NCBI GenBank assembly: GCA_041082215.1
Contig: JBDOIF010000020.1
Location: 1-64,000 of the forward strand
Reading direction: 5' to 3'
Source: Anaerolineae bacterium
GTDB lineage: Bacteria > Chloroflexota > Anaerolineae > B4-G1 > DUEL01
Length of the DNA stretch: 64,000 bases
In this document: positions 34,708 through 42,682 of the stretch, in pieces
Layout: every line of letters begins with the position of its first letter
Position numbering within the stretch: position 1 is the first letter of the stretch
Program-made: the position numbers and the translations under genes
Notes under the pieces: generated by a model
Seen by the model: only the letters and a program-made list of their open reading frames with translations
What the model was told of the DNA's origin: nothing
Database searches by the model: none

Positions 34708-36189
34708 CTACATCCCGGCCAGCCAGCGGGCGGCAGCTTCGTGGGCCAGGGCACGGAAGTGACCCCACCCGGCCCACGCCGGCGGCACCCCCCGCAGCTC
34801 ATCCGCCACCCGGGGGAGGTCCTCCGGAGGGACCCAGCGGAAGCCGGTGATGCGTTCGGCATGATCGTTGACCGCTGGCTCTCCTTCCACCTCCCCCAGC
34901 ACCAGCCACGAGTGGAAGAAGACCCGCCGCCCATCCTCCCGCAGGCGATAGGTCAGCAGGCCCAGGGGACGGAGGTCTCGGGGAGAGAGGCCTGTCTCCT
35001 CCTCCGTCTCCCGGCGGGCTGCTTCCATCACCCCTTCCCGGAGGCGGATGCCGCCGGTAGGCAGGCGGAAGAGTCCGGTGGAGTAGAAGGCCTTGGTGTG
35101 GAGGAGCAGGTTGCCGTCAGCGCGGCGCAGGAGCAGGACCACCTCCCCGGCCCGGTTTCTGAGCCGCACCTGCCGGGTAACTTCTTTGAAGAACCGGCGG
35201 CCCACCGAGCTGGAATAATGAAGATGGGGAAGGGGGCCGAAACGAGCCTCCACCGCCGCCCGCTGCCGGCGACAGGCCCCGGCGACGGTAGCAGGTCGGC
35301 GGGATGCGGTCCAGAGGGGGATAAGGCTGAGAAGGAGGACAGCCGTCGCCAGCAACCCCCCTTCCGGCCCGAAGCTCCCGCCGGTCCACAGGGCCGGCCC
35401 GCCGGTCCCTAAAGACAACAGCCCTGCCCAGCTCACCCCGCTCACCGGCATCCCCAGGAGCGGCCCCTGGGCCAGGTTCCAGGCGAAATGGTAGCCGACC
35501 GCGAGCCAGAGTGTGCCAGTCCGTTCCACTGCCAGGGCGAAGACCGCCCCCGCCAGACCGATATTGACGAGAGCCAGCCAGGTGAGGTGGGGATTGAGGG
35601 CGTGGAAGAGGGCGAAAAGCAGGGAAGTGACCACCACGCCAACGGCGGGGCCGCGCCAGGTGGTAAGGGCGCGGAGGAGATAGCCGCGAAAAGCCACCTC
35701 TTCTGCTGCGGCAAGGGGGAGAAGAGCGAGGGCGTCCAGCACGAAAGCGGCGAGGGACCCCTCGCCCGGCCTCAGGGCGGCCCAGCCCACAGCAAGCCGG
35801 ACCCCGCTGATGGCTATCATCGTCCCCACCCCCAGGCCGATCCCTACCCCCAAATCCTGTCCCCCTCTGGCCGGGTCCAGTCCCATCGTCTCCACCGGCT
35901 CCCGGTCCAGAAAGCGGCCCAGGAGGAGGGCCAGCCCCAGGGCAGCACCCAGACGTGTAAGCCCTGTAGCCAGGAGGAAGAGGGAGGGAAGCTGGCCGGA
36001 TGTCATCCTGTTCAGAGCCTCCATCGGCGGGTGGCCGGTAAGAAGGAGCATGGCAACGTAAGCCAGCGCGATCAACAGGTCGAAAGCCAGCTCCGCCGCC
36101 AGCAGCCCGATCAGGTAGAGAAGCACCCGCCACAGAGGGTGGAGGCGGTCTCCCAGAAGAAAGAGACGTTGCCATCCTTTTCGTCGCAT
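34708..36189 (-). CDS. CPBP (CAAX/Abi) intramembrane protease fused to NUDIX hydrolase
   Basis: EEVAFR, FALFH, HFAWN; Nudix box GGIRLREGVMEAARRETEEETGL. Confidence 0.85.
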   Translation of the reverse strand: MRRKGWQRLFLLGDRLHPLWRVLLYLIGLLAAELAFDLLIALAYVAMLLLTGHPPMEALNRMTSGQLPSLFLLATGLTRLGAALGLALLLGRFLDREPVETMGLDPARGGQDLGVGIGLGVGTMIAISGVRLAVGWAALRPGEGSLAAFVLDALALLPLAAAEEVAFRGYLLRALTTWRGPAVGVVVTSLLFALFHALNPHLTWLALVNIGLAGAVFALAVERTGTLWLAVGYHFAWNLAQGPLLGMPVSGVSWAGLLSLGTGGPALWTGGSFGPEGGLLATAVLLLSLIPLWTASRRPATVAGACRRQRAAVEARFGPLPHLHYSSSVGRRFFKEVTRQVRLRNRAGEVVLLLRRADGNLLLHTKAFYSTGLFRLPTGGIRLREGVMEAARRETEEETGLSPRDLRPLGLLTYRLREDGRRVFFHSWLVLGEVEGEPAVNDHAERITGFRWVPPEDLPRVADELRGVPPAWAGWGHFRALAHEAAARWLAGM

Positions 36190-36417
36190 AAGGGCCCCTT
36201 CAGTTCAGATAGGATGATCGGCACGACATGTGGTTTGTATCACAGAGAGAGAGAGGTGTCAAACGTCGCAGCTCAGGGGAGGGATACGCCGATTGACGCT
36301 CCCCTGCCGCTGTGCTATACTGTTTTTCATCAAGACAGAGAGGTGCGAAGACTTTTCACACTTTACCGCCGAGGCGCAGAGGGTGCGGAGGTTTCCGGGT
36401 CTGAAAAAGGAGGAGAG

Positions 36418-37548
36418 ATGCACAGGGATCGTGGATCGGCACGGGGTTGGGCGTTTGCTGGTGGAGCACTGCTTCTGGCTGCACTGGCCTGTAGCTTCCC
36501 CGTCAGAAGGGCTCCCACTCCTACCATCTCTCTGGAGGCAGCCGAAGGGATAACCCCTTCGGTCCCCTCAGGAACTCCGCAGACGGTGACGCCGGCGGTA
36601 GAGGTCACCACTGAAGCGGGCTGCACCCTGAACGGAGCCTACGTGGCCGATGTAACGGTGCCGGATAACACCCCATTCCCGCCAGGCGAAGCCTTTGTCA
36701 AGACCTGGCGGCTGCGCAACACGGGCACGTGTGCCTGGGAGGCGGGGACTGCGCTCGTCTTCATCTCTGGCAGCTCGATGGGTGGGCCAACGGCGGTGCC
36801 GGTAGCGGCGGCAGCGCCTGGCACCACCACCGACGTCAGCGTGAACCTGGTCGCCCCTCCGGCCCCTGGCACCTACAGGGGGAACTGGCAACTTCAGGCC
36901 CCCGACGGCACCCGCTTCGGGTCGGTCGTCTACGTGCAGATCGTAGTGGTGGAGCCGGTCACCGAGACCCCCACATCCACTTCCACCCCTACCCGCACCC
37001 CCACCCCAGGCTTCTGTGTGGGGCCAGACCCTATCCTGGGGCCGATCTTCACCTACGCTGGATCCCAGGGGCTGAACCTGGGCTGCCCCACCGGTGCGGC
37101 GTTCTCTGTCTACGGGGCCTTCCAGGAGTTCTGGGCCAATGTGGACAATCCCAACCCTCACCTGCACTTCCGCAGCCTGATGATCTGGCGTGGGGACGAA
37201 AGGGAGATTTACGTCCTGGACGGTGAGGATACCGATGCCTCCAGGGGGAATTTTCTGGCCTACACCGACTTCTGGGAAGAGGGTATGCCCGAGGTGCACC
37301 CGGATTGTGCCGGGACAGCCCCGCCAGCGGGCTACCAGCTCCCTATCCGGGGCTTCGGCAAGGTCTGGTGTGAGAACAGGCTCTGGGAGTGGGTGGGCTG
37401 GCCCGCCGAACATGAGACGGAAGCTACCCTCCTGATCCAGCCGACGGAGTATGGGCTGCTGATGCGGGCGACCACGACCCACGTCGGTTACCTTCTGGCC
37501 CTGGACTATCGGGCGATGCGGGGAGTCACGACCATGGTTGCCCCGTAG
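36418..37548 (+). CDS. lipoprotein with NBR1-Ig-like domain
   Basis: lipobox ALAC; DVTVPDNT..FVKTWRLRNTGTCAW; promoter TTGACG-17-TATACT at 36293. Confidence 0.8.
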   Translation: MHRDRGSARGWAFAGGALLLAALACSFPVRRAPTPTISLEAAEGITPSVPSGTPQTVTPAVEVTTEAGCTLNGAYVADVTVPDNTPFPPGEAFVKTWRLRNTGTCAWEAGTALVFISGSSMGGPTAVPVAAAAPGTTTDVSVNLVAPPAPGTYRGNWQLQAPDGTRFGSVVYVQIVVVEPVTETPTSTSTPTRTPTPGFCVGPDPILGPIFTYAGSQGLNLGCPTGAAFSVYGAFQEFWANVDNPNPHLHFRSLMIWRGDEREIYVLDGEDTDASRGNFLAYTDFWEEGMPEVHPDCAGTAPPAGYQLPIRGFGKVWCENRLWEWVGWPAEHETEATLLIQPTEYGLLMRATTTHVGYLLALDYRAMRGVTTMVAP

Positions 37549-37561
37549 TACGTACTGCCAT

Positions 37562-38026
37562 ATGCCCCTACTGATTGATGGCCACAACCTGATCGGTCGC
37601 CTGGCCGATCTGAGCCTGGAGGACCCGGAGGACGAGGCGAGGCTGGTGGAGCGGGTGCGGCGGTACTGCTGGCGTCACCGCTGTCAGGCAATCGTCGTAT
37701 TCGATGCTGGCCTCCCTGGCGGCCCCGCCCCCCACCTCTCGGGCGGGTCGGTCCGGGTGGTGTTCGCCTCACCCGGCACCACCGCCGATGCTCTCATTCG
37801 GCACCACATCCGCCAGACGCGCGACCCCCGGGGCCTCATTGTCGTCTCCTCGGATCGGGCAGTACAGGAGGCAGCCCGCTCGCGAGGGGCGCGGGCCGTC
37901 CCGGCGGAGCAGTTTGCGGCGGAACTGGCTCCCCCCAGGCCGACGGAAGAGCCACCGGAAAAGCCCGGCTCCGTCGGCGACGTCGAGGAGTGGCTGCGGC
38001 TGTTCGAGAAAGGCGGAACTCCGTGA
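37562..38026 (+). CDS. YacP-like NYN domain ribonuclease
   Basis: LIDGHN, VVFD, TADALI, VVSSD. Confidence 0.85.
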   Translation: MPLLIDGHNLIGRLADLSLEDPEDEARLVERVRRYCWRHRCQAIVVFDAGLPGGPAPHLSGGSVRVVFASPGTTADALIRHHIRQTRDPRGLIVVSSDRAVQEAARSRGARAVPAEQFAAELAPPRPTEEPPEKPGSVGDVEEWLRLFEKGGTP

Positions 38027-38034
38027 AAATCGGC

Positions 38035-38063
38035 TTGCCCTTTACCGCCGGGTGTGGTATAAT
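38035..38063 (+). promoter_or_regulatory. aspS promoter
   Basis: TTGCCC-17-TATAAT with extended TG. Confidence 0.8.
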
Positions 38064-38080
38064 TTTATTTGAGGTTTGAA

Positions 38081-38167
38081 ATGCGTAGCTACGCCTGGGC
38101 CTGCGACCAGCAGAATAACCGGGCCGTCCCCCCCGTGGGGCGGCAGCGGTCGCTGCCGCGTGGCTAG
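38081..38167 (+). CDS. putative leader peptide (28 aa, DQQNN)
   Basis: SD GAGGT; MRSYAWACDQQNNRAVPPVGRQRSLPRG*. Confidence 0.5.
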   Translation: MRSYAWACDQQNNRAVPPVGRQRSLPRG

Positions 38168-38187
38168 CAGATAACACGGTAAGACCA

Positions 38188-38218
38188 GGCCGCCCCACTA
38201 AGGGGCGGCTTATTCTTT
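38188..38218 (+). terminator. attenuator terminator upstream of aspS
   Basis: GCCGCCCC-actaa-GGGGCGGC-TTATTCTTT. Confidence 0.75.
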
Positions 38219-38250
38219 AACTACATCCCGTTCGATGAGGAGGCTGCAAG

Positions 38251-40014
38251 ATGCTCAAATCCCATCACTGCGGCGAGCTGCGGGCAGAGCATATCGGGCA
38301 GACAGTCACCCTGGCAGGCTGGGTCAACCGGCAGCGGGACCACGGGGGGCTGGTCTTCATTGACCTGCGGGATCGGTCCGGGATCGCCCAGGTGGTCACC
38401 GATCCGGCCCACGCCGCCGACGCCCACGAAACAGCCGCCCGCGCACGACAGGAATACGTGCTCCAGGTCCGGGGTAGGGTGCGCCGTCGGCCGGAGGGGC
38501 TGATCAACCCTTCCATCCCCACCGGCGAGATCGAGGTCCTGGCCGACGAGATCGTTGTCCTCAATCCGGCAAAGACCCCTCCCTTCTACATCTTCGAAGA
38601 GGCGCCGGTGGACGAGGCGCTGCGGCTGCGCTACCGGTATCTCGACCTGCGCAGGCAGCGTATGCAACGCAATCTGATCCTCCGCCACCGCGTGGTCAAG
38701 TTCATCCGCGACTTTCTTGATGCCCGGGGTTTTCTGGAAATCGAAACGCCCATCCTCTTCAAAAGTACACCGGAGGGAGCACGGGACTACCTGGTCCCCA
38801 GCCGCATTCACCCCGGCAAATTCTACGCCCTCCCTCAATCCCCCCAGCAACTGAAACAGCTCCTGATGGTGGCCGGATTCGAGCGGTACTTCCAGATCGC
38901 CCGCTGCTTCCGGGATGAGGACCTGCGCGGTGACCGGCAGCCGGAGTTCACCCAGTTGGATCTCGAGATGAGCTTCGTCGAACGGGAAGATGTGATCGCA
39001 CTGATCGAGGAGCTGATGACCGGCCTTGTCGAGGAGTGCAGCAATCGGCGACTGGTCACCAGGCCGTTCCCCCGCCTTACCTACGCCGAAGCGATGGACC
39101 GGTATGGTACAGACAAACCGGACCTGCGGTTTGGGATGGAGCTGGTGGACATCTCCGATCTGGTGACCGGTAGCGACTTCCGCGTCTTCCGCCAGGCGGT
39201 GGAGACAGGGGGACAGGTGAAGGGGCTTCGTGCCCCCGGTTGCGCCGCCTACAGCCGGCGGCAGACCGATGAACTCGCCGAGCTGGCGAAAAAGGAGGGG
39301 GCGTCGGGACTGGCCTGGCTTGCCCTGCCCGAAGGCGGCGACATCCGCTCCTCCTTTGCCAGATTTCTCTCCGACCAGGAGGTCGAGGCCATTCTCCGAC
39401 GGATGGCGGCAGAGCCGGGCGACCTGCTGCTGTTCGTCGCCGACCGGCGGCCGGCGGTCGCCGCGGCCCTCTCGGCCCTCCGCCTGGAGATGGGAGAGCG
39501 GCTGGGACTGCGCGATCCGGGTGTGCTGGCCTTCTGCTGGATCCTCGACTTCCCGCTCTTCGAATGGAACGAGGAGGAGAACCGGTGGGACCCCAGCCAC
39601 CACCTCTTCACCGCCCCTATGCCGGAGGACCTGCCGCTTCTGGATACAGACCCCGGCGCGGCGCGGGGGCAGCAGTATGACCTGGTCTGTAACGGCGAGG
39701 AGATCGCCGGAGGCTCAATCCGGATCCATCGGCGGGAGGTGCAGGAGAAGGTCTTCCAGCTTATCGGGCTCGACGTGGAGCAGGCGCGGGAACGGTTCGG
39801 CCATATGCTGGAGGCCTTCGAGTACGGCACGCCCCCGCACGGCGGCATCGCCTCCGGAATTGACCGCCTGGTGATGCTGCTGGCAGGCGAGAACAGCATC
39901 CGCGAAGTGATGGCTTTCCCCAAGACGGGGCAGGCGATTGACCTGATGGCCAACGCCCCCTCGCCGGTGGACCCGGAGCAACTGGCTGAGCTGCACATCC
40001 GGGTTTTGGAATAG
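38251..40014 (+). CDS. aspS: aspartate--tRNA ligase, probably non-discriminating (Asp/Asn)
   Basis: [31 protein letters not shown]. Confidence 0.97.
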
Positions 40015-40070
40015 GAGCAGATCGCAGGCCGTATGAAATACGGAATACGCAATACCTGGGAGGAGGAAAG

Positions 40071-41405
40071 ATGACTCATAAGGAACTGATCGCCCGTGTG
40101 CGCGAGGACGGTGTGCGGTTTATCAGCCTCCAGTTCACCGACATCCTCGGCACGATCAAGAGCGTCACCATCCCGGCTGGGCAACTGGAGGGGGCGCTGG
40201 AGGAAGGGGTGTGGTTTGACGGCTCCTCCATTGAGGGCTTCGCCCGCATCTACGAAAGCGACATGGTCCTTATCCCCGACCCGTCCACCTATCGGGTCCT
40301 GCCCTGGAGCGAACCGGAGCGCCGCCGGGCCCGCATCATCTGTAACGTCTATGGTCCAAACGGGCAGCCCTCTCCCAGCGACCCCCGTTCTGCCCTCAGG
40401 CGGGTGCTGGCCCGCGCCACGGAGAAGGGATATGTCTATAACGTAGGGCCGGAGCTGGAGTTCTTTCTCTTCAAACGGGACGGGATGCCCTCCCTTCACC
40501 CTGTGCCCCACGATGTGGGCGGCTACTTCGACTTCTCCCCCCGCGACGAGGCGCAGCAGGTGCGCAGCGAGATCATCCTGTCCCTGGAGGCGCTGGGCAT
40601 CCCGGTGGAGATGGGCCACCATGAGGTAGCCACCGGCCAGCATGAGATTGACTTCCACTACGCCGACGCGCTGACCAGCGCCGATAACGCCGTCACCTTC
40701 AAGTACACCGTGCGGGCTATCGCCGCCAGCCACGGCCTCTATGCCAGCTTTATGCCCAAGCCGATCTTCGGCATCAACGGCTCCGGAATGCACACCCACC
40801 AGAGCATTTTCGATGCCCGGGGCCACAATCTCTTCTACGATCCCGACGACGAGTACCATCTCTCTCGCCTGGCCTACAGCTTCATCGCCGGGCAGATGGT
40901 CCACGCCCGGGCGCTGGCAGCGGTGGTCGCGCCGACGGTGAACAGCTACAAGCGGCTCACACCTGGATACGAGGCCCCGGTCTATATCTGCTGGGCCCAT
41001 CTGAACCGGTCCGCCCTTATCCGCGTGCCGGCCAACCGTGCCGGTCGGGAGGGGGCCACCCGGATCGAGCTTCGCTGCCCCGACCCCAGCGCCAACCCCT
41101 ACCTGGCCTTCGCTGCGATGCTGGCAGCCGGGCTGGATGGGGTGGAGAGGGGGCTGACGCCTCCCCCACCGGTCAATGAGGATGTGTACGACTTCGACGA
41201 ACGGGAGCTTCGGGAGCGGGCCATCGGCGTGTTGCCCGCTACGCTGTCCGAGGCGCTGGATGAGCTGGAGAAGGATCCGGTGGTGCAGGAGGCCCTTGGA
41301 CCGGTGATCCTGGAGGCACTGCTGCGAGCGCGGCGGGCGGAGTGGGACGAGTACCGCATCCAGGTCACGCCGTGGGAACTGGAACGATACCTGGAAACGG
41401 CATAG
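40071..41405 (+). CDS. glnA: glutamine synthetase type I
   Basis: FDGSS, HHEVATGQHE, NGSGMHTH, NSYKRL, ELRCPD. Confidence 0.93.
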   Translation: MTHKELIARVREDGVRFISLQFTDILGTIKSVTIPAGQLEGALEEGVWFDGSSIEGFARIYESDMVLIPDPSTYRVLPWSEPERRRARIICNVYGPNGQPSPSDPRSALRRVLARATEKGYVYNVGPELEFFLFKRDGMPSLHPVPHDVGGYFDFSPRDEAQQVRSEIILSLEALGIPVEMGHHEVATGQHEIDFHYADALTSADNAVTFKYTVRAIAASHGLYASFMPKPIFGINGSGMHTHQSIFDARGHNLFYDPDDEYHLSRLAYSFIAGQMVHARALAAVVAPTVNSYKRLTPGYEAPVYICWAHLNRSALIRVPANRAGREGATRIELRCPDPSANPYLAFAAMLAAGLDGVERGLTPPPPVNEDVYDFDERELRERAIGVLPATLSEALDELEKDPVVQEALGPVILEALLRARRAEWDEYRIQVTPWELERYLETA

Positions 41406-41467
41406 CCCGCCGATTGACCGCCGCAACGGAGAGGCCGCAGAGGTCTCCGTGACCTCTGCGGTTCCTT

Positions 41468-41653
41468 TTTCAATTTCGGGGCGAGTGGTCCTCTCGCCCG
41501 CCGGTGGATCTCGAATCCCACGAATGGCCCGAATACAGCGAACAGGAGGGATCCCTGCCCCATTTGCAGTGTTCGTTCCCATTCGCGCCATTCGCGTTTC
41601 CCCAGGTCCGGCCCGGGCCAGGGACATCTCGCCCTCAAACTGAAATACACCTC
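41468..41653 (+). mobile_element. ~190-bp MITE-like element, copy 3 (left tip missing)
   Basis: near-identical to 16193-16385; right TIR intact. Confidence 0.8.
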
Positions 41654-41731
41654 TTTTTTACCCGAATTGCGCAAAACCCCTGCCGTGGGTATAATGGTTT
41701 CATCCCCTGCCATCCAGAGGAGACAGGACAT

Positions 41732-42682
41732 ATGCATCTGCGCTGGATATCCGCCCTGATGGGAGTACTGGTGCTGAGCTCCGCCTGCGGTCCCCTTTTG
41801 GCCCCGTCGGTCGCCCCGGCGGCGACACAGCCACAGCCCGCCTCCCAGACTGCCCCGACCGGCCCCGCCCCCACCCCTACACCGGACCGCCCGCTGGCGG
41901 CGGTGGTCAACGGCTGGCCTATCTATCTGGCTGACTACGAGCGGCAGGTGGCTCAGTATCAGGCGGCGATGACTGCCTCCGGGGAGGACCTGAACAGCCC
42001 GGAGGGGCAACAGCGCCTGCTGCGGGCGCGAGAGCAGATCCTGAACTGGATGATCGAGCAGGCGCTCATTGAACAGGCAGCCGCCCAGATGGGGATCACG
42101 GTCACCGATGAAGAGGTGGACGCCGCGCTGGCCCAGATCATCGAGGAAGTGGGCGGGGAAGGCCCCTTCCAGGCCCGCCTGGAGCAGGACGGGATGAGCC
42201 GCCAGGATGTGTGGAGGGAGCTTCGGGCAGAGCTGATCACCTCGGCTGTCATCGAACAGGTCGTTGCTTCCGTACCCACCACGGCTGAGCATGTCCGCGC
42301 CCGCCATATCCTGGTGGATACACGGGAGGAAGCAGAGCAGCTCCTGGCCCAGCTACAGGCAGGGGCGGATTTCGCCGAGCTGGCCCGTGCCTACTCTATG
42401 GACGAAAGCACACGGGAGGCCGGAGGAGACCTGGGGTTCTTCCCCCGGGGGGTTCTGCTCTCGCCAGAGGTGGAAGAGGCCGCCTTCAGCCTCCAGGCAG
42501 GGCAGATCAGTCCGGTCGTTCAGAGCTCCTTCGGCTTCCACATCGTCCAGGTGCTGGAGCGGGAGGAGCGTCCGCTGAGTCCAGAGAATCTGCAGATGCT
42601 GCGCGACAAGGCGGTCCAGAGCTGGGTCGAGTCCCTGTGGGCCCAGGCCGCTATCGAACGGTATGTGAACCTGAACCCGTAG
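41732..42682 (+). CDS. PrsA/SurA-like parvulin peptidylprolyl isomerase lipoprotein
   Basis: lipobox SSAC; RARHILV, FAELARAYS, GGDLG, GFHIV. Confidence 0.9.
   Translation: MHLRWISALMGVLVLSSACGPLLAPSVAPAATQPQPASQTAPTGPAPTPTPDRPLAAVVNGWPIYLADYERQVAQYQAAMTASGEDLNSPEGQQRLLRAREQILNWMIEQALIEQAAAQMGITVTDEEVDAALAQIIEEVGGEGPFQARLEQDGMSRQDVWRELRAELITSAVIEQVVASVPTTAEHVRARHILVDTREEAEQLLAQLQAGADFAELARAYSMDESTREAGGDLGFFPRGVLLSPEVEEAAFSLQAGQISPVVQSSFGFHIVQVLEREERPLSPENLQMLRDKAVQSWVESLWAQAAIERYVNLNP

Follow-up and report, generated by a model that had tools for sequence, protein, structure and literature searches.

Leader peptides with Asp and Asn codons as probable transcription attenuators of aspS-glnA in Anaerolineae

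Main

Attenuation of transcription by a translated leader peptide is a textbook mechanism, and the pheST attenuator of Escherichia coli, with its pheM leader peptide, places it in front of an aminoacyl-tRNA synthetase (aaRS) operon. Mixed-codon, or multivalent, leaders are known for thr and ilv. To our knowledge, leader-peptide attenuation is known almost only for biosynthetic operons and for pheST, in Proteobacteria and Actinobacteria. Here we analyse a stretch of 64,000 nucleotides (the window) from a hot-spring Anaerolineae (Chloroflexota) metagenome-assembled genome, labelled G000, in which a leader precedes the genes for aspartyl-tRNA synthetase (AspRS; aspS) and glutamine synthetase (glnA). 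We conclude that this leader is very probably a ribosome-mediated transcription attenuator of the trp, his and pheST kind, with a new Asp/Asn specificity, acting on aspS-glnA.

In the open-access literature we found no report of a leader with Asp and Asn codons, of aspS or glnA under the control of a leader peptide, or of leader peptides of any kind in Anaerolineae; older Russian-language comparative work on aaRS attenuation lies outside that scope. PMC2659441 names aspS under a generic 'tRNA synthetase leader' in Shewanella, and the sought terms do not occur in PMC2965389. Excerpts of PMC4833913 were among the sources of our literature comparison on leader peptides.

Anatomy of the aspS leader

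We read positions 37700-38500 of the window, placing each feature that an earlier note had proposed from the sequence. The promoter, ribosome-binding site, 28-codon open reading frame (ORF), regulatory codons, pairing segments, U-tailed terminator and competing hairpin were all where that note had put them, on the plus strand. The promoter (38035-38063) consists of a -35 element TTGCCC at 38035-38040, a 17-nt spacer and an extended -10 element, TGgTATAAT, with TATAAT at 38058-38063. It has 10 of 12 hexamer matches plus the TG and is the sole sigma-70-like site in 37000-42000 (mean of 0.8 in shuffles); relatives have equivalent promoters 5' of the leader, TTGCCA..TGaTATAAT or TTGACA..TGCTATACT. 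A Shine-Dalgarno (SD) motif, GAGG (38071-38074), stands 6 nt before the ATG (38081) of the leader ORF (38081-38167), whose 28 codons end at TAG (38165-38167) and encode MRSYAWACDQQNNRAVPPVGRQRSLPRG. SD-like motifs precede the chosen start in most of the relatives' leaders, not all; several leaders of family f2 have none by a regular-expression search.

Within the ORF, the codons GAC CAG CAG AAT AAC (D-Q-Q-N-N) occupy 38105-38119. Segment 1, GCCGTCCCC (38123-38131), opens 5-6 nt downstream of the final Asn codon's first base, 5 nt in our geometry count and 6 nt by the start given in the earlier note, and can pair, as a candidate anti-antiterminator, with segment 2, GTGGGGCGGC (38135-38144); this 1:2 pairing (-17.8 kcal/mol) is part of the minimum free energy fold of the window leader. 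Segment 2, which is complementary to both segment 1 and segment 3, is the exact 10-nt reverse complement of GCCGCCCCAC at 38189-38198. The intrinsic terminator (38187-38211) is built of segment 3, AGGCCGCCCC (38187-38196), the loop ACTAA and segment 4, GGGGCGGCTT (38202-38211), followed by ATTCTTTAAC. A middle hairpin, CGGCAGC-GGTC-GCTGCCG (38140-38159), overlaps the 3' end of segment 2 and competes with its other pairings. The aspS SD, GAGGAGG (38237-38243), leads into aspS (38251-40014), a bacterial-type AspRS of 587 amino acids (Pfam tRNA-synt_2, GAD and OB; NCBIfam NF001750, 868 bits). It is followed by glnA (40071-41405), a type I glutamine synthetase (TIGR00653, 550 bits). As the earlier note had stated, the gap of 56 nt between the two genes holds no terminator; our scan found neither a terminator-like nor a promoter-like site there, and aspS and glnA are probably co-transcribed.

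How far could such an arrangement arise by chance? Among 6,881 short ATG ORFs (18-34 amino acids, six frames) of G000, 41 (0.6%) have at least three D/N in five residues, two have at least four in five and one has five of five D/N/Q; we take this last ORF to be the aspS leader. When D/N-rich short ORFs were combined with a terminator, only the aspS leader joined an SD to a strong hairpin. The pairing of segments 2 and 3 in the window (-19.7 kcal/mol) was equalled by 5 of 200 dinucleotide shuffles, which is only moderate, and the fold of the whole leader exceeds that of shuffles in stability (z = -2.4; 3 of 200 as stable). Judged from this one sequence, the case is moderate; it is the comparison with relatives that makes a chance origin unlikely, and the main weight of evidence lies in conservation.

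That modest margin over shuffles is also what speaks for a wholly accidental arrangement, in which the terminator belongs to the upstream NYN/YacP gene (Pfam PF05991) and GC-rich DNA gave rise to the ORF and the complementarities by accident. This is scarcely credible: the promoter sits between the stop of that gene (TGA, 38024-38026) and the leader, the whole unit travels with aspS beside differing upstream genes in relatives, and its conservation over several families already contradicts such an origin.

Conservation of the leader among relatives

The closest named AspRS loci, 83-84% identical, come from assemblies labelled 'Anaerolineae bacterium'. When 41 genomes (G000 plus 40 relatives) were searched at the DNA level, 24 proved to have the aspS 5' region, the match often reaching into the leader. 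From these genomes we excised 20 upstream regions, 16 of which share the layout of promoter, SD, short ORF, GGGGCGG and terminator; two others are cut by contig ends (L002 and L012) and two have no leader (L016 and L020). A covariance model of the 16 leaders (R1), used with the strict filters of Infernal, matched 39 of 145 genomes of the order, with 21 of 25 in family f1, 17 of 48 in f2 and 0 of 71 in f3. Across bacteria, R1 matched 6 of 80 named AspRS loci, all with an AspRS at least 74% identical; five of them carry the label Anaerolineae or Anaerolineales, and one belongs to an 'uncultured bacterium' assembly. The sequence comparison thus presents the leader as a real and conserved regulatory element.

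What is conserved includes the reading frame and the identity of its regulatory codons. An ORF spans the D/N run in 44 of the 45 forward matches taken as loci; the 45th is cut by a contig end. These yield 41 distinct leader ORFs of 19-28 codons, every one with a start codon and an in-frame D/N run that begins at codon 7-12. The runs read DNN, DHNN, DQQNN, DDNDN, NDDD, DDD, DNDN, DSDNDN, DNDQN, DNQDN, DNDNDN, NNDTN and others. Both synonymous codons are used within them (AAT 57 and AAC 36; GAT 35 and GAC 29), and the flanking peptide is variable. The long open frames of G000, the one genome in which usage was measured, contain 19,041 AAC against 7,517 AAT codons, and the leaders favour this rarer Asn codon. 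By contrast with such drift, 36 of 38 leaders spell the Gly-Arg codons that lie over segment 2 as GGGCGG, as expected for a constraint on the RNA.

All aspS leaders among the 45 matches have Asp codons, mostly with Asn as well. The earlier note had proposed sensing of Asp, Gln and Asn; Asp or Asn codons are indeed present in all 41 distinct leaders, and the Gln part did not carry over, since only 9 of the 41 have CAG within the run or next to it (the window, L037, L040, L043, L045, L046, L050, L057 and L059). Gln codons are commoner than expected yet not conserved, and Gln sensing would be at most an optional addition, sensible where glnA is co-transcribed.

These counts bear on the view that the leader works as RNA only, as a riboswitch or as a protein- or tRNA-bound element, with the short ORF incidental. 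Such an element could account for the stable fold of the window leader and for the conservation of several hairpins. It is nevertheless very improbable, because start codon, frame and D/N identity are kept in 41 leaders while synonymous codons and flanks change, the D/N run lies outside any conserved helix, and no Rfam family matches. No Rfam family reached its gathering score anywhere in the window, and 37500-38800 gave only chance-level hits to unrelated families (E 0.5-8). The earlier note had also set the T-box aside, and the T-box family (RF00230) had no match in 37500-38800 at E of 10 or below nor window-wide at its gathering score. As a positive control elsewhere in the same genome, the T-box upstream of the ThrRS gene (L204, G000:C23:21760-22120) scored 91.7 bits, slightly short of its gathering score (93). 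A partial T-box upstream of the TrpRS gene (L205, G000:C97:22297-22657), cut by the 5' end of the retrieved sequence, scored 24.4 bits. T-boxes and leader peptides therefore coexist in G000.

Inspection of 29 upstream regions by eye added three divergent aspS leaders with terminators: L068 (..KYNNNAP..), L071 from Anaerolineales (..LLNNDNNNANASDN..) and L119 from Thermoflexales (..TEDNNNTDNDDAR, ending at its stop codon). A second model, R2, matched 54 of 151 genomes of the class, mostly through a bare terminator (model positions 121-156). Of ten full-length R2 loci inspected, five were spurious, one was a Met leader before a MetRS gene, and four were D/N leaders before aspS from families f12 and f21: L177 (..INNNRDDNDNRG..), L193 (..LNSDDNDNRD..), and L181 (..VVDNANDNNDEA) and L184 (..VVDNANDNTDDEA), both of which run to the stop codon. 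A class-wide pattern search over 401 genomes (GGGCGG N20-50 GCCGCCC N3-12 GGGCGG) matched 142, and a reversed-pattern control matched about as many; the pattern is unspecific and was left unused.

Several loci vary in other ways. L073 and L075 (Anaerolineales, AspRS 64% identical) have a very short M-N-N-N ORF just 5' of the aspS SD and no obvious terminator, and may represent a translational variant of the same idea. Insertions between terminator and aspS were seen in L011, L013 and L036/L039 (genus g2), with a long inverted repeat, CACCACGGAGACACAGAG...CTCTGTG..GTGGTG. L009/L022 (G014) have about 250 nt extra at this position, with the leader-terminator unit intact, as in the g2 cases. In L006 and L017 (g5), short tandem repeats, GGGAGGCAGGAGGCAGG... 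and GGAAGCAGG..., lie directly 5' of the promoter of the aspS leader.

RNA pairings and the proposed mechanism

Pairings were counted on an alignment of 37 leaders (A3), in which the GGGCGG core of segment 2 is invariant or nearly so. The antiterminator, 2:3, was paired in 98.3% of cells, compared with 39-70% in slid controls, with compensatory changes at two pairs (five cells) and a shuffle count of 1/500. The terminator, 3:4, was paired in 93% of cells (slid controls 33-60%), with 22 compensatory cells and a shuffle count of 0/500. Both shuffle counts overstate independence because the sequences are related. In L040, a G-to-A change in segment 2, which turns a G-C into an A-U pair, has its matching U in segment 1 as well as in segment 3, the pattern predicted by a three-way switch. 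Every leader allows some form of 1:2 pairing, with energies of -7 to -29 kcal/mol. Covariation, which the earlier note had proposed to look for, was thus found in 2:3 and 3:4; the register of 1:2 is not conserved between lineages.

The spacing of these parts is likewise kept. In 33 of 41 leaders the distance to the start of segment 1, counted from the first base of the closing D/N codon, is 3-7 nt, and 28-42 nt separate the end of segment 2 from segment 3 in 38 of 41. In most f2 leaders the stop codon, a UGA in the middle-hairpin loop, follows segment 2 by 5-7 nt; in g5 it falls 2 nt inside segment 2 (GGG CGG TAG) or 19 nt beyond it. A ribosome that has reached the stop would therefore cover or abut segment 2, and a ribosome at the run would leave it free. 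Read in this way, the spacing of stop, run and segments is a trp-type arrangement. The earlier note's proposal of trp-style geometry thus gains from the comparison, since in 41 distinct leaders the ORF and its D/N codons have been kept alongside the RNA segments.

From this anatomy and these mutually exclusive pairings we infer the following sequence of events, in which stalling, read-through and the charged tRNA pools that matter are the proposed steps. Transcription would start from the promoter at 38035-38063, and the 28-codon leader would be translated as it is made. With Asp-tRNA and Asn-tRNA plentiful, the ribosome would pass the D-(Q-Q)-N-N codons towards the stop, and segment 2 would be covered by the ribosome or re-paired with segment 1 or within the middle hairpin. 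Segment 3 would then pair with segment 4, and RNA polymerase would terminate at 38211-38220. Were Asp-tRNA(Asp) or Asn-tRNA(Asn) scarce, the ribosome would stall on the run and mask segment 1; segment 2 would pair with the emerging segment 3, no terminator would form, and transcription would read through into aspS and glnA. If the leader were not translated at all, 1:2 and 3:4 would both form and transcription would terminate.

Several findings weigh against this mechanism or fit it poorly. The leader is absent from some close relatives (G002/L016, L128 and L020) as well as from all 71 f3 genomes. The register of 1:2 is lineage-specific: the window uses GCCGUCCC, g5 uses CCGCCC, and f2 either CGGCC or CGCCCC. 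A hand count puts the CCGCCC core of g5 about 16 nt downstream of the A-site codon, outside a standard ribosome footprint, and the opening of g5 segment 1 may depend on a candidate outer stem. A g5 P1 helix, AACCGC.../...GCGGUU, was seen by eye; its column assignment was wrong, and we make no claim for it. In 17 of 41 leaders, mostly the GC-rich ones of g5, 2:3 was no better than dinucleotide shuffles (at p of 0.05 or below). Equilibrium folds in which the ribosome footprint was masked codon by codon, scored as terminator probability on the full leader or as segment-3 pairing on RNA cut after segment 3, were noisy and gave no consistent switch; on the full leader, the selection of terminators also took outer stems. 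We dropped these folds as evidence because the decision is kinetic. Both the window (UUAUUCUUUAAC) and g5 (UCGCUUUAUAU) have an imperfect U-tract. Contigs from the metatranscriptome run X9 cover 38255-38507 and parts of glnA at a depth of 1-3 and none cover the leader, a result that speaks neither for nor against expression or termination.

The middle hairpin is a further difficulty, since a conserved, covarying hairpin at this place is unexplained by a simple four-segment model. It is kept in 16 f1-type leaders with compensatory and wobble changes; one pair is C-G in 11, U-G in 4 and U-A in 1. In one variant, GGCAGC/GCUGCC has become GGUAGC/GCUACC, and the C-to-U change also makes a TAG stop. 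Candidate roles are a pause site for RNA polymerase or a competitor that limits the antiterminator.

The imperfect U-tracts, together with an aspS SD just about 26 nt 3' of the hairpin, would also suit a leader that acts on aspS translation or mRNA stability (through SD access, RNases or Rho) and not through termination. We consider this improbable. All 37 aligned leaders have a GC-rich hairpin with a T-rich tail and show compensatory changes in the stem, the aspS SD is in no conserved pairing, and the unit is intact more than 250 nt upstream of aspS (L022/L009) or behind an inserted hairpin (L036/L039).

A further observation concerns the leader peptides themselves. The C-rich segment 1 encodes Pro-Pro (38126-38137 in the window), as VPPV in the window and PGPPE in g5. 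Pro-Pro pausing that depends on EF-P could alter the timing of the ribosome on the leader, or the Pro-Pro could be a by-product of the constraint on the RNA.

Genes behind the leader and the link to nitrogen

Among the 45 forward matches of R1, 34 precede a bacterial-type aspS and 3 an archaeal-type AspRS gene assigned by NCBIfam to aspartate-tRNA(Asn) ligase (NF003483, 530 bits, cut-off 353). Three others precede a glutamine-dependent NAD+ synthase gene (nadE; NF010588, 746 bits), one a stand-alone glnA (TIGR00653, 556 bits) and one a glutamate-synthase-like (GOGAT-like) gene (PF01645, 362 bits); the remaining three run into a contig end. The link to glutamine synthesis drawn in the earlier note is supported on two sides: glnA lies directly 3' of aspS in G000 and, among the 40 relatives searched, in at least 15 (f1 and f2), and leader copies with Asn but no Asp codons stand before nitrogen genes. 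The latter read YTNNNN before the NAD+ synthase gene, EKNN before the stand-alone glnA and VYNN before the GOGAT-like gene. The five copies are L052 (G015:C29:2490-2653, minus strand), L053 (G020:C204), L054 (G016:C57), L051 (G015:C169:1600-1742, minus strand) and L055 (G081:C47:4199-4354, plus strand). Such paralogous copies occur in 4 of 14 g5 genomes searched, and in G081 nadE follows the GOGAT-like gene. The leaders before the archaeal-type AspRS genes are in turn Asn-rich (NNNDND, NHNDND and NNNDN; L042 and L056 from G056, L064 from G064), and in L056 the archaeal-type gene is directly followed by a bacterial-type aspS.

In genus g2, glnA lies apart from aspS, behind a HisKA_2 kinase and a Response_reg-ANTAR regulator (PF03861, 73.6 bits), with its own promoter and a terminator-like leader (L219, G013:C35; L220, G011:C7; L221, G001:C66). 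This layout suggests that in g2 an ANTAR-type antitermination system, not the aspS leader, serves glnA. The aspS leader of g2 nevertheless retains DDNDN, which ties its Asn codons to aspS itself.

In the window, a terminator-like hairpin at 41433-41463, with a 13-pair stem followed by CCTTTTTCAA, closes the aspS-glnA unit. Further upstream, at 35488-37548, lies an ORF of 686 amino acids with an N_BRCA1_IG (Ig-like) domain (PF16158, 103 bits), unrelated to the leader.

Specificity of the AspRS

Why should the leader of an AspRS gene carry Asn codons? The earlier note had called the enzyme non-discriminating (ND), that is, able to serve tRNA(Asn) as well. It had named two residues, and both are present in the anticodon-binding domain, as His31 (in RDHGG) and Gly83 (in PEG). 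Bernard and colleagues are said to have found in 2006 that these two residues decide discrimination. In the solved structures 4wj3, 5gro and 4rmf, all of which were deposited as Asp/Asn ligases, His and Gly occupy the aligned positions; the E. coli enzyme (1c0a/1eqr) has Leu and Lys there. G000 also encodes GatB (TIGR00133, 551 bits, cut-off 314.8); according to PMC6523644, an ND AspRS is always accompanied by the amidotransferase. According to PMC4206432, Bdellovibrio, Thermus and Deinococcus have GatCAB alongside AsnRS and GlnRS, and the bacterial-type AspRS of Bdellovibrio accepts tRNA(Asn). The mixed Asp and Asn codons, which persist even where glnA is elsewhere, would fit an AspRS that charges tRNA(Asp) as well as tRNA(Asn) and feeds GatCAB.

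The other side of the balance is the direct route to Asn-tRNA(Asn). AsnRS is encoded in 35 of the 41 genomes, including G000 (NF003037, 550 bits), and G000 also has GlnRS and an AsnB-type asparagine synthetase (TIGR01536, 520 bits); AsnA was looked for in G000 and not found. With AsnRS and an AsnB-type synthetase present, nothing forces the indirect route. The residue match and the retained GatB thus favour the earlier assignment, the direct enzymes count against it, and on balance we lean towards a non-discriminating AspRS.

The same enzymes are the starting point for an account in which the attenuator works as proposed and the AspRS is discriminating. Asp codons would then report on AspRS and tRNA(Asp), and the Asn (and occasional Gln) codons on amide nitrogen for glnA, with Asn made by AsnB from Gln and charged by AsnRS. 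Besides the presence of AsnRS, GlnRS and AsnB, this account draws on the adjacency of aspS and glnA and on the Asn-only leaders (NN, NNNN, YNN) before the stand-alone glnA, nadE and the GOGAT-like gene. We regard it as rather doubtful. The g2 aspS leader keeps its Asn codons although glnA is elsewhere and has an ANTAR-type leader, the leaders before the aspartate-tRNA(Asn) ligase are the most Asn-rich, His31 and Gly83 match the solved Asp/Asn ligases and not E. coli, and GatB is retained despite GlnRS and AsnRS.

Other leaders in Anaerolineae

Short ORFs of similar build stand before other aaRS genes. Met-rich short ORFs with a terminator precede MetRS genes in L186 (G179:C93:36453-36580; MKTSPALPMVTMTMSMSMEISLRARVARS, up to its stop) and L203 (G000:C84:54484-54844, minus strand; ..PMMMRCLPRRSEEEAL, likewise to the stop), neither with an Rfam match; the L203 ORF lies directly after a sigma-factor-like gene and has no visible promoter. 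As sequences, they are hints that leader peptides also serve other aaRS genes of Anaerolineae. Before a TyrRS-like gene, L206 (G000:C51:6898-7258, minus strand) has a possible promoter, a short ORF (MGVWSASAYIYTGGL, with a stop) containing two Tyr codons, hairpins and a T-tailed terminator; it had no Rfam match, and this Tyr leader is suggestive only.

A short ORF, MAKKTQKTTTTTTTTDKGGGKKKPGGKKKK (G000:C95, minus strand, reverse-strand start 99767), contains eight Thr codons in a row, with a T-tailed hairpin behind it; about 165 nt 3' of it a gene begins that looks response-regulator-like by eye. When G000 was scanned strictly for runs of a single amino acid with terminators, even the aspS leader was missed, and the scan is therefore uninformative on other leaders.

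Discussion

Taken together, the loci allow a tentative outline of a wider regulon in Anaerolineae. In this outline, Asn codons would read the sufficiency of amide nitrogen (glutamine) through Asn-tRNA(Asn) and gate glnA, the GOGAT-like gene, NAD+ synthase and both types of AspRS, and Asp codons would be added only for AspRS targets. Leader peptides rather than T-boxes might serve several other aaRS genes of the class as well, the Met-rich leaders of MetRS and the possible Tyr leader of TyrRS being candidates, and the D and N codons of the aspS leader would be an in-genome signature of an AspRS that charges tRNA(Asp) and tRNA(Asn). We put this forward as a possibility to be held loosely.

If the reading of the leader as an Asp/Asn attenuator is true, it offers a first handle on gene regulation in a widespread and barely cultured class and ties tRNA charging directly to nitrogen assimilation (glnA, GOGAT-like gene and NadE). 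It would also provide a sequence-only predictor of bacterial-type AspRS enzymes that serve tRNA(Asn), and a compact Asp/Asn-responsive switch of about 150 nt, testable in reporters.

Among described systems, the T-box resembles the aspS leader in that it senses tRNA charging and controls aaRS genes through a switch between terminator and antiterminator. It does so by binding uncharged tRNA directly, without translation, whereas the aspS leader has a conserved ORF instead. The ANTAR system that we see at the g2 glnA loci also controls glnA by way of a terminator, and in the same bacterial family, but through a response regulator protein and not a translated leader. On the side of the enzyme, the ND AspRS of Pseudomonas aeruginosa (4wj3) is, like the putatively ND enzyme of G000, of the bacterial type with His and Gly, and Bdellovibrio, too, has a bacterial-type AspRS that accepts tRNA(Asn); G000 differs from such ND systems in also having an AsnB-type asparagine synthetase.

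The trp, his, thr and ilv attenuators share with the proposed aspS attenuator the logic of 1:2, 2:3 and 3:4 pairings, regulatory codons just 5' of segment 1 and a stop near segment 2. The Rfam leader families for Trp, His, Leu, Thr and Phe gave no credible match to the aspS leader. These attenuators belong to biosynthetic operons of Proteobacteria and Actinobacteria, and the aspS leader has an additional conserved middle hairpin.

By analogy, pheST with pheM is the nearest counterpart, with no relationship to the aspS leader in sequence or in Rfam. Both combine a short ORF rich in cognate codons, alternative hairpins and an intrinsic terminator on an aaRS operon. The aspS leader differs from pheST in reading two amino acids, Asp and Asn, in place of Phe, in belonging to the Anaerolineae of the Chloroflexota, and in standing before an operon that adds glnA to the synthetase gene.

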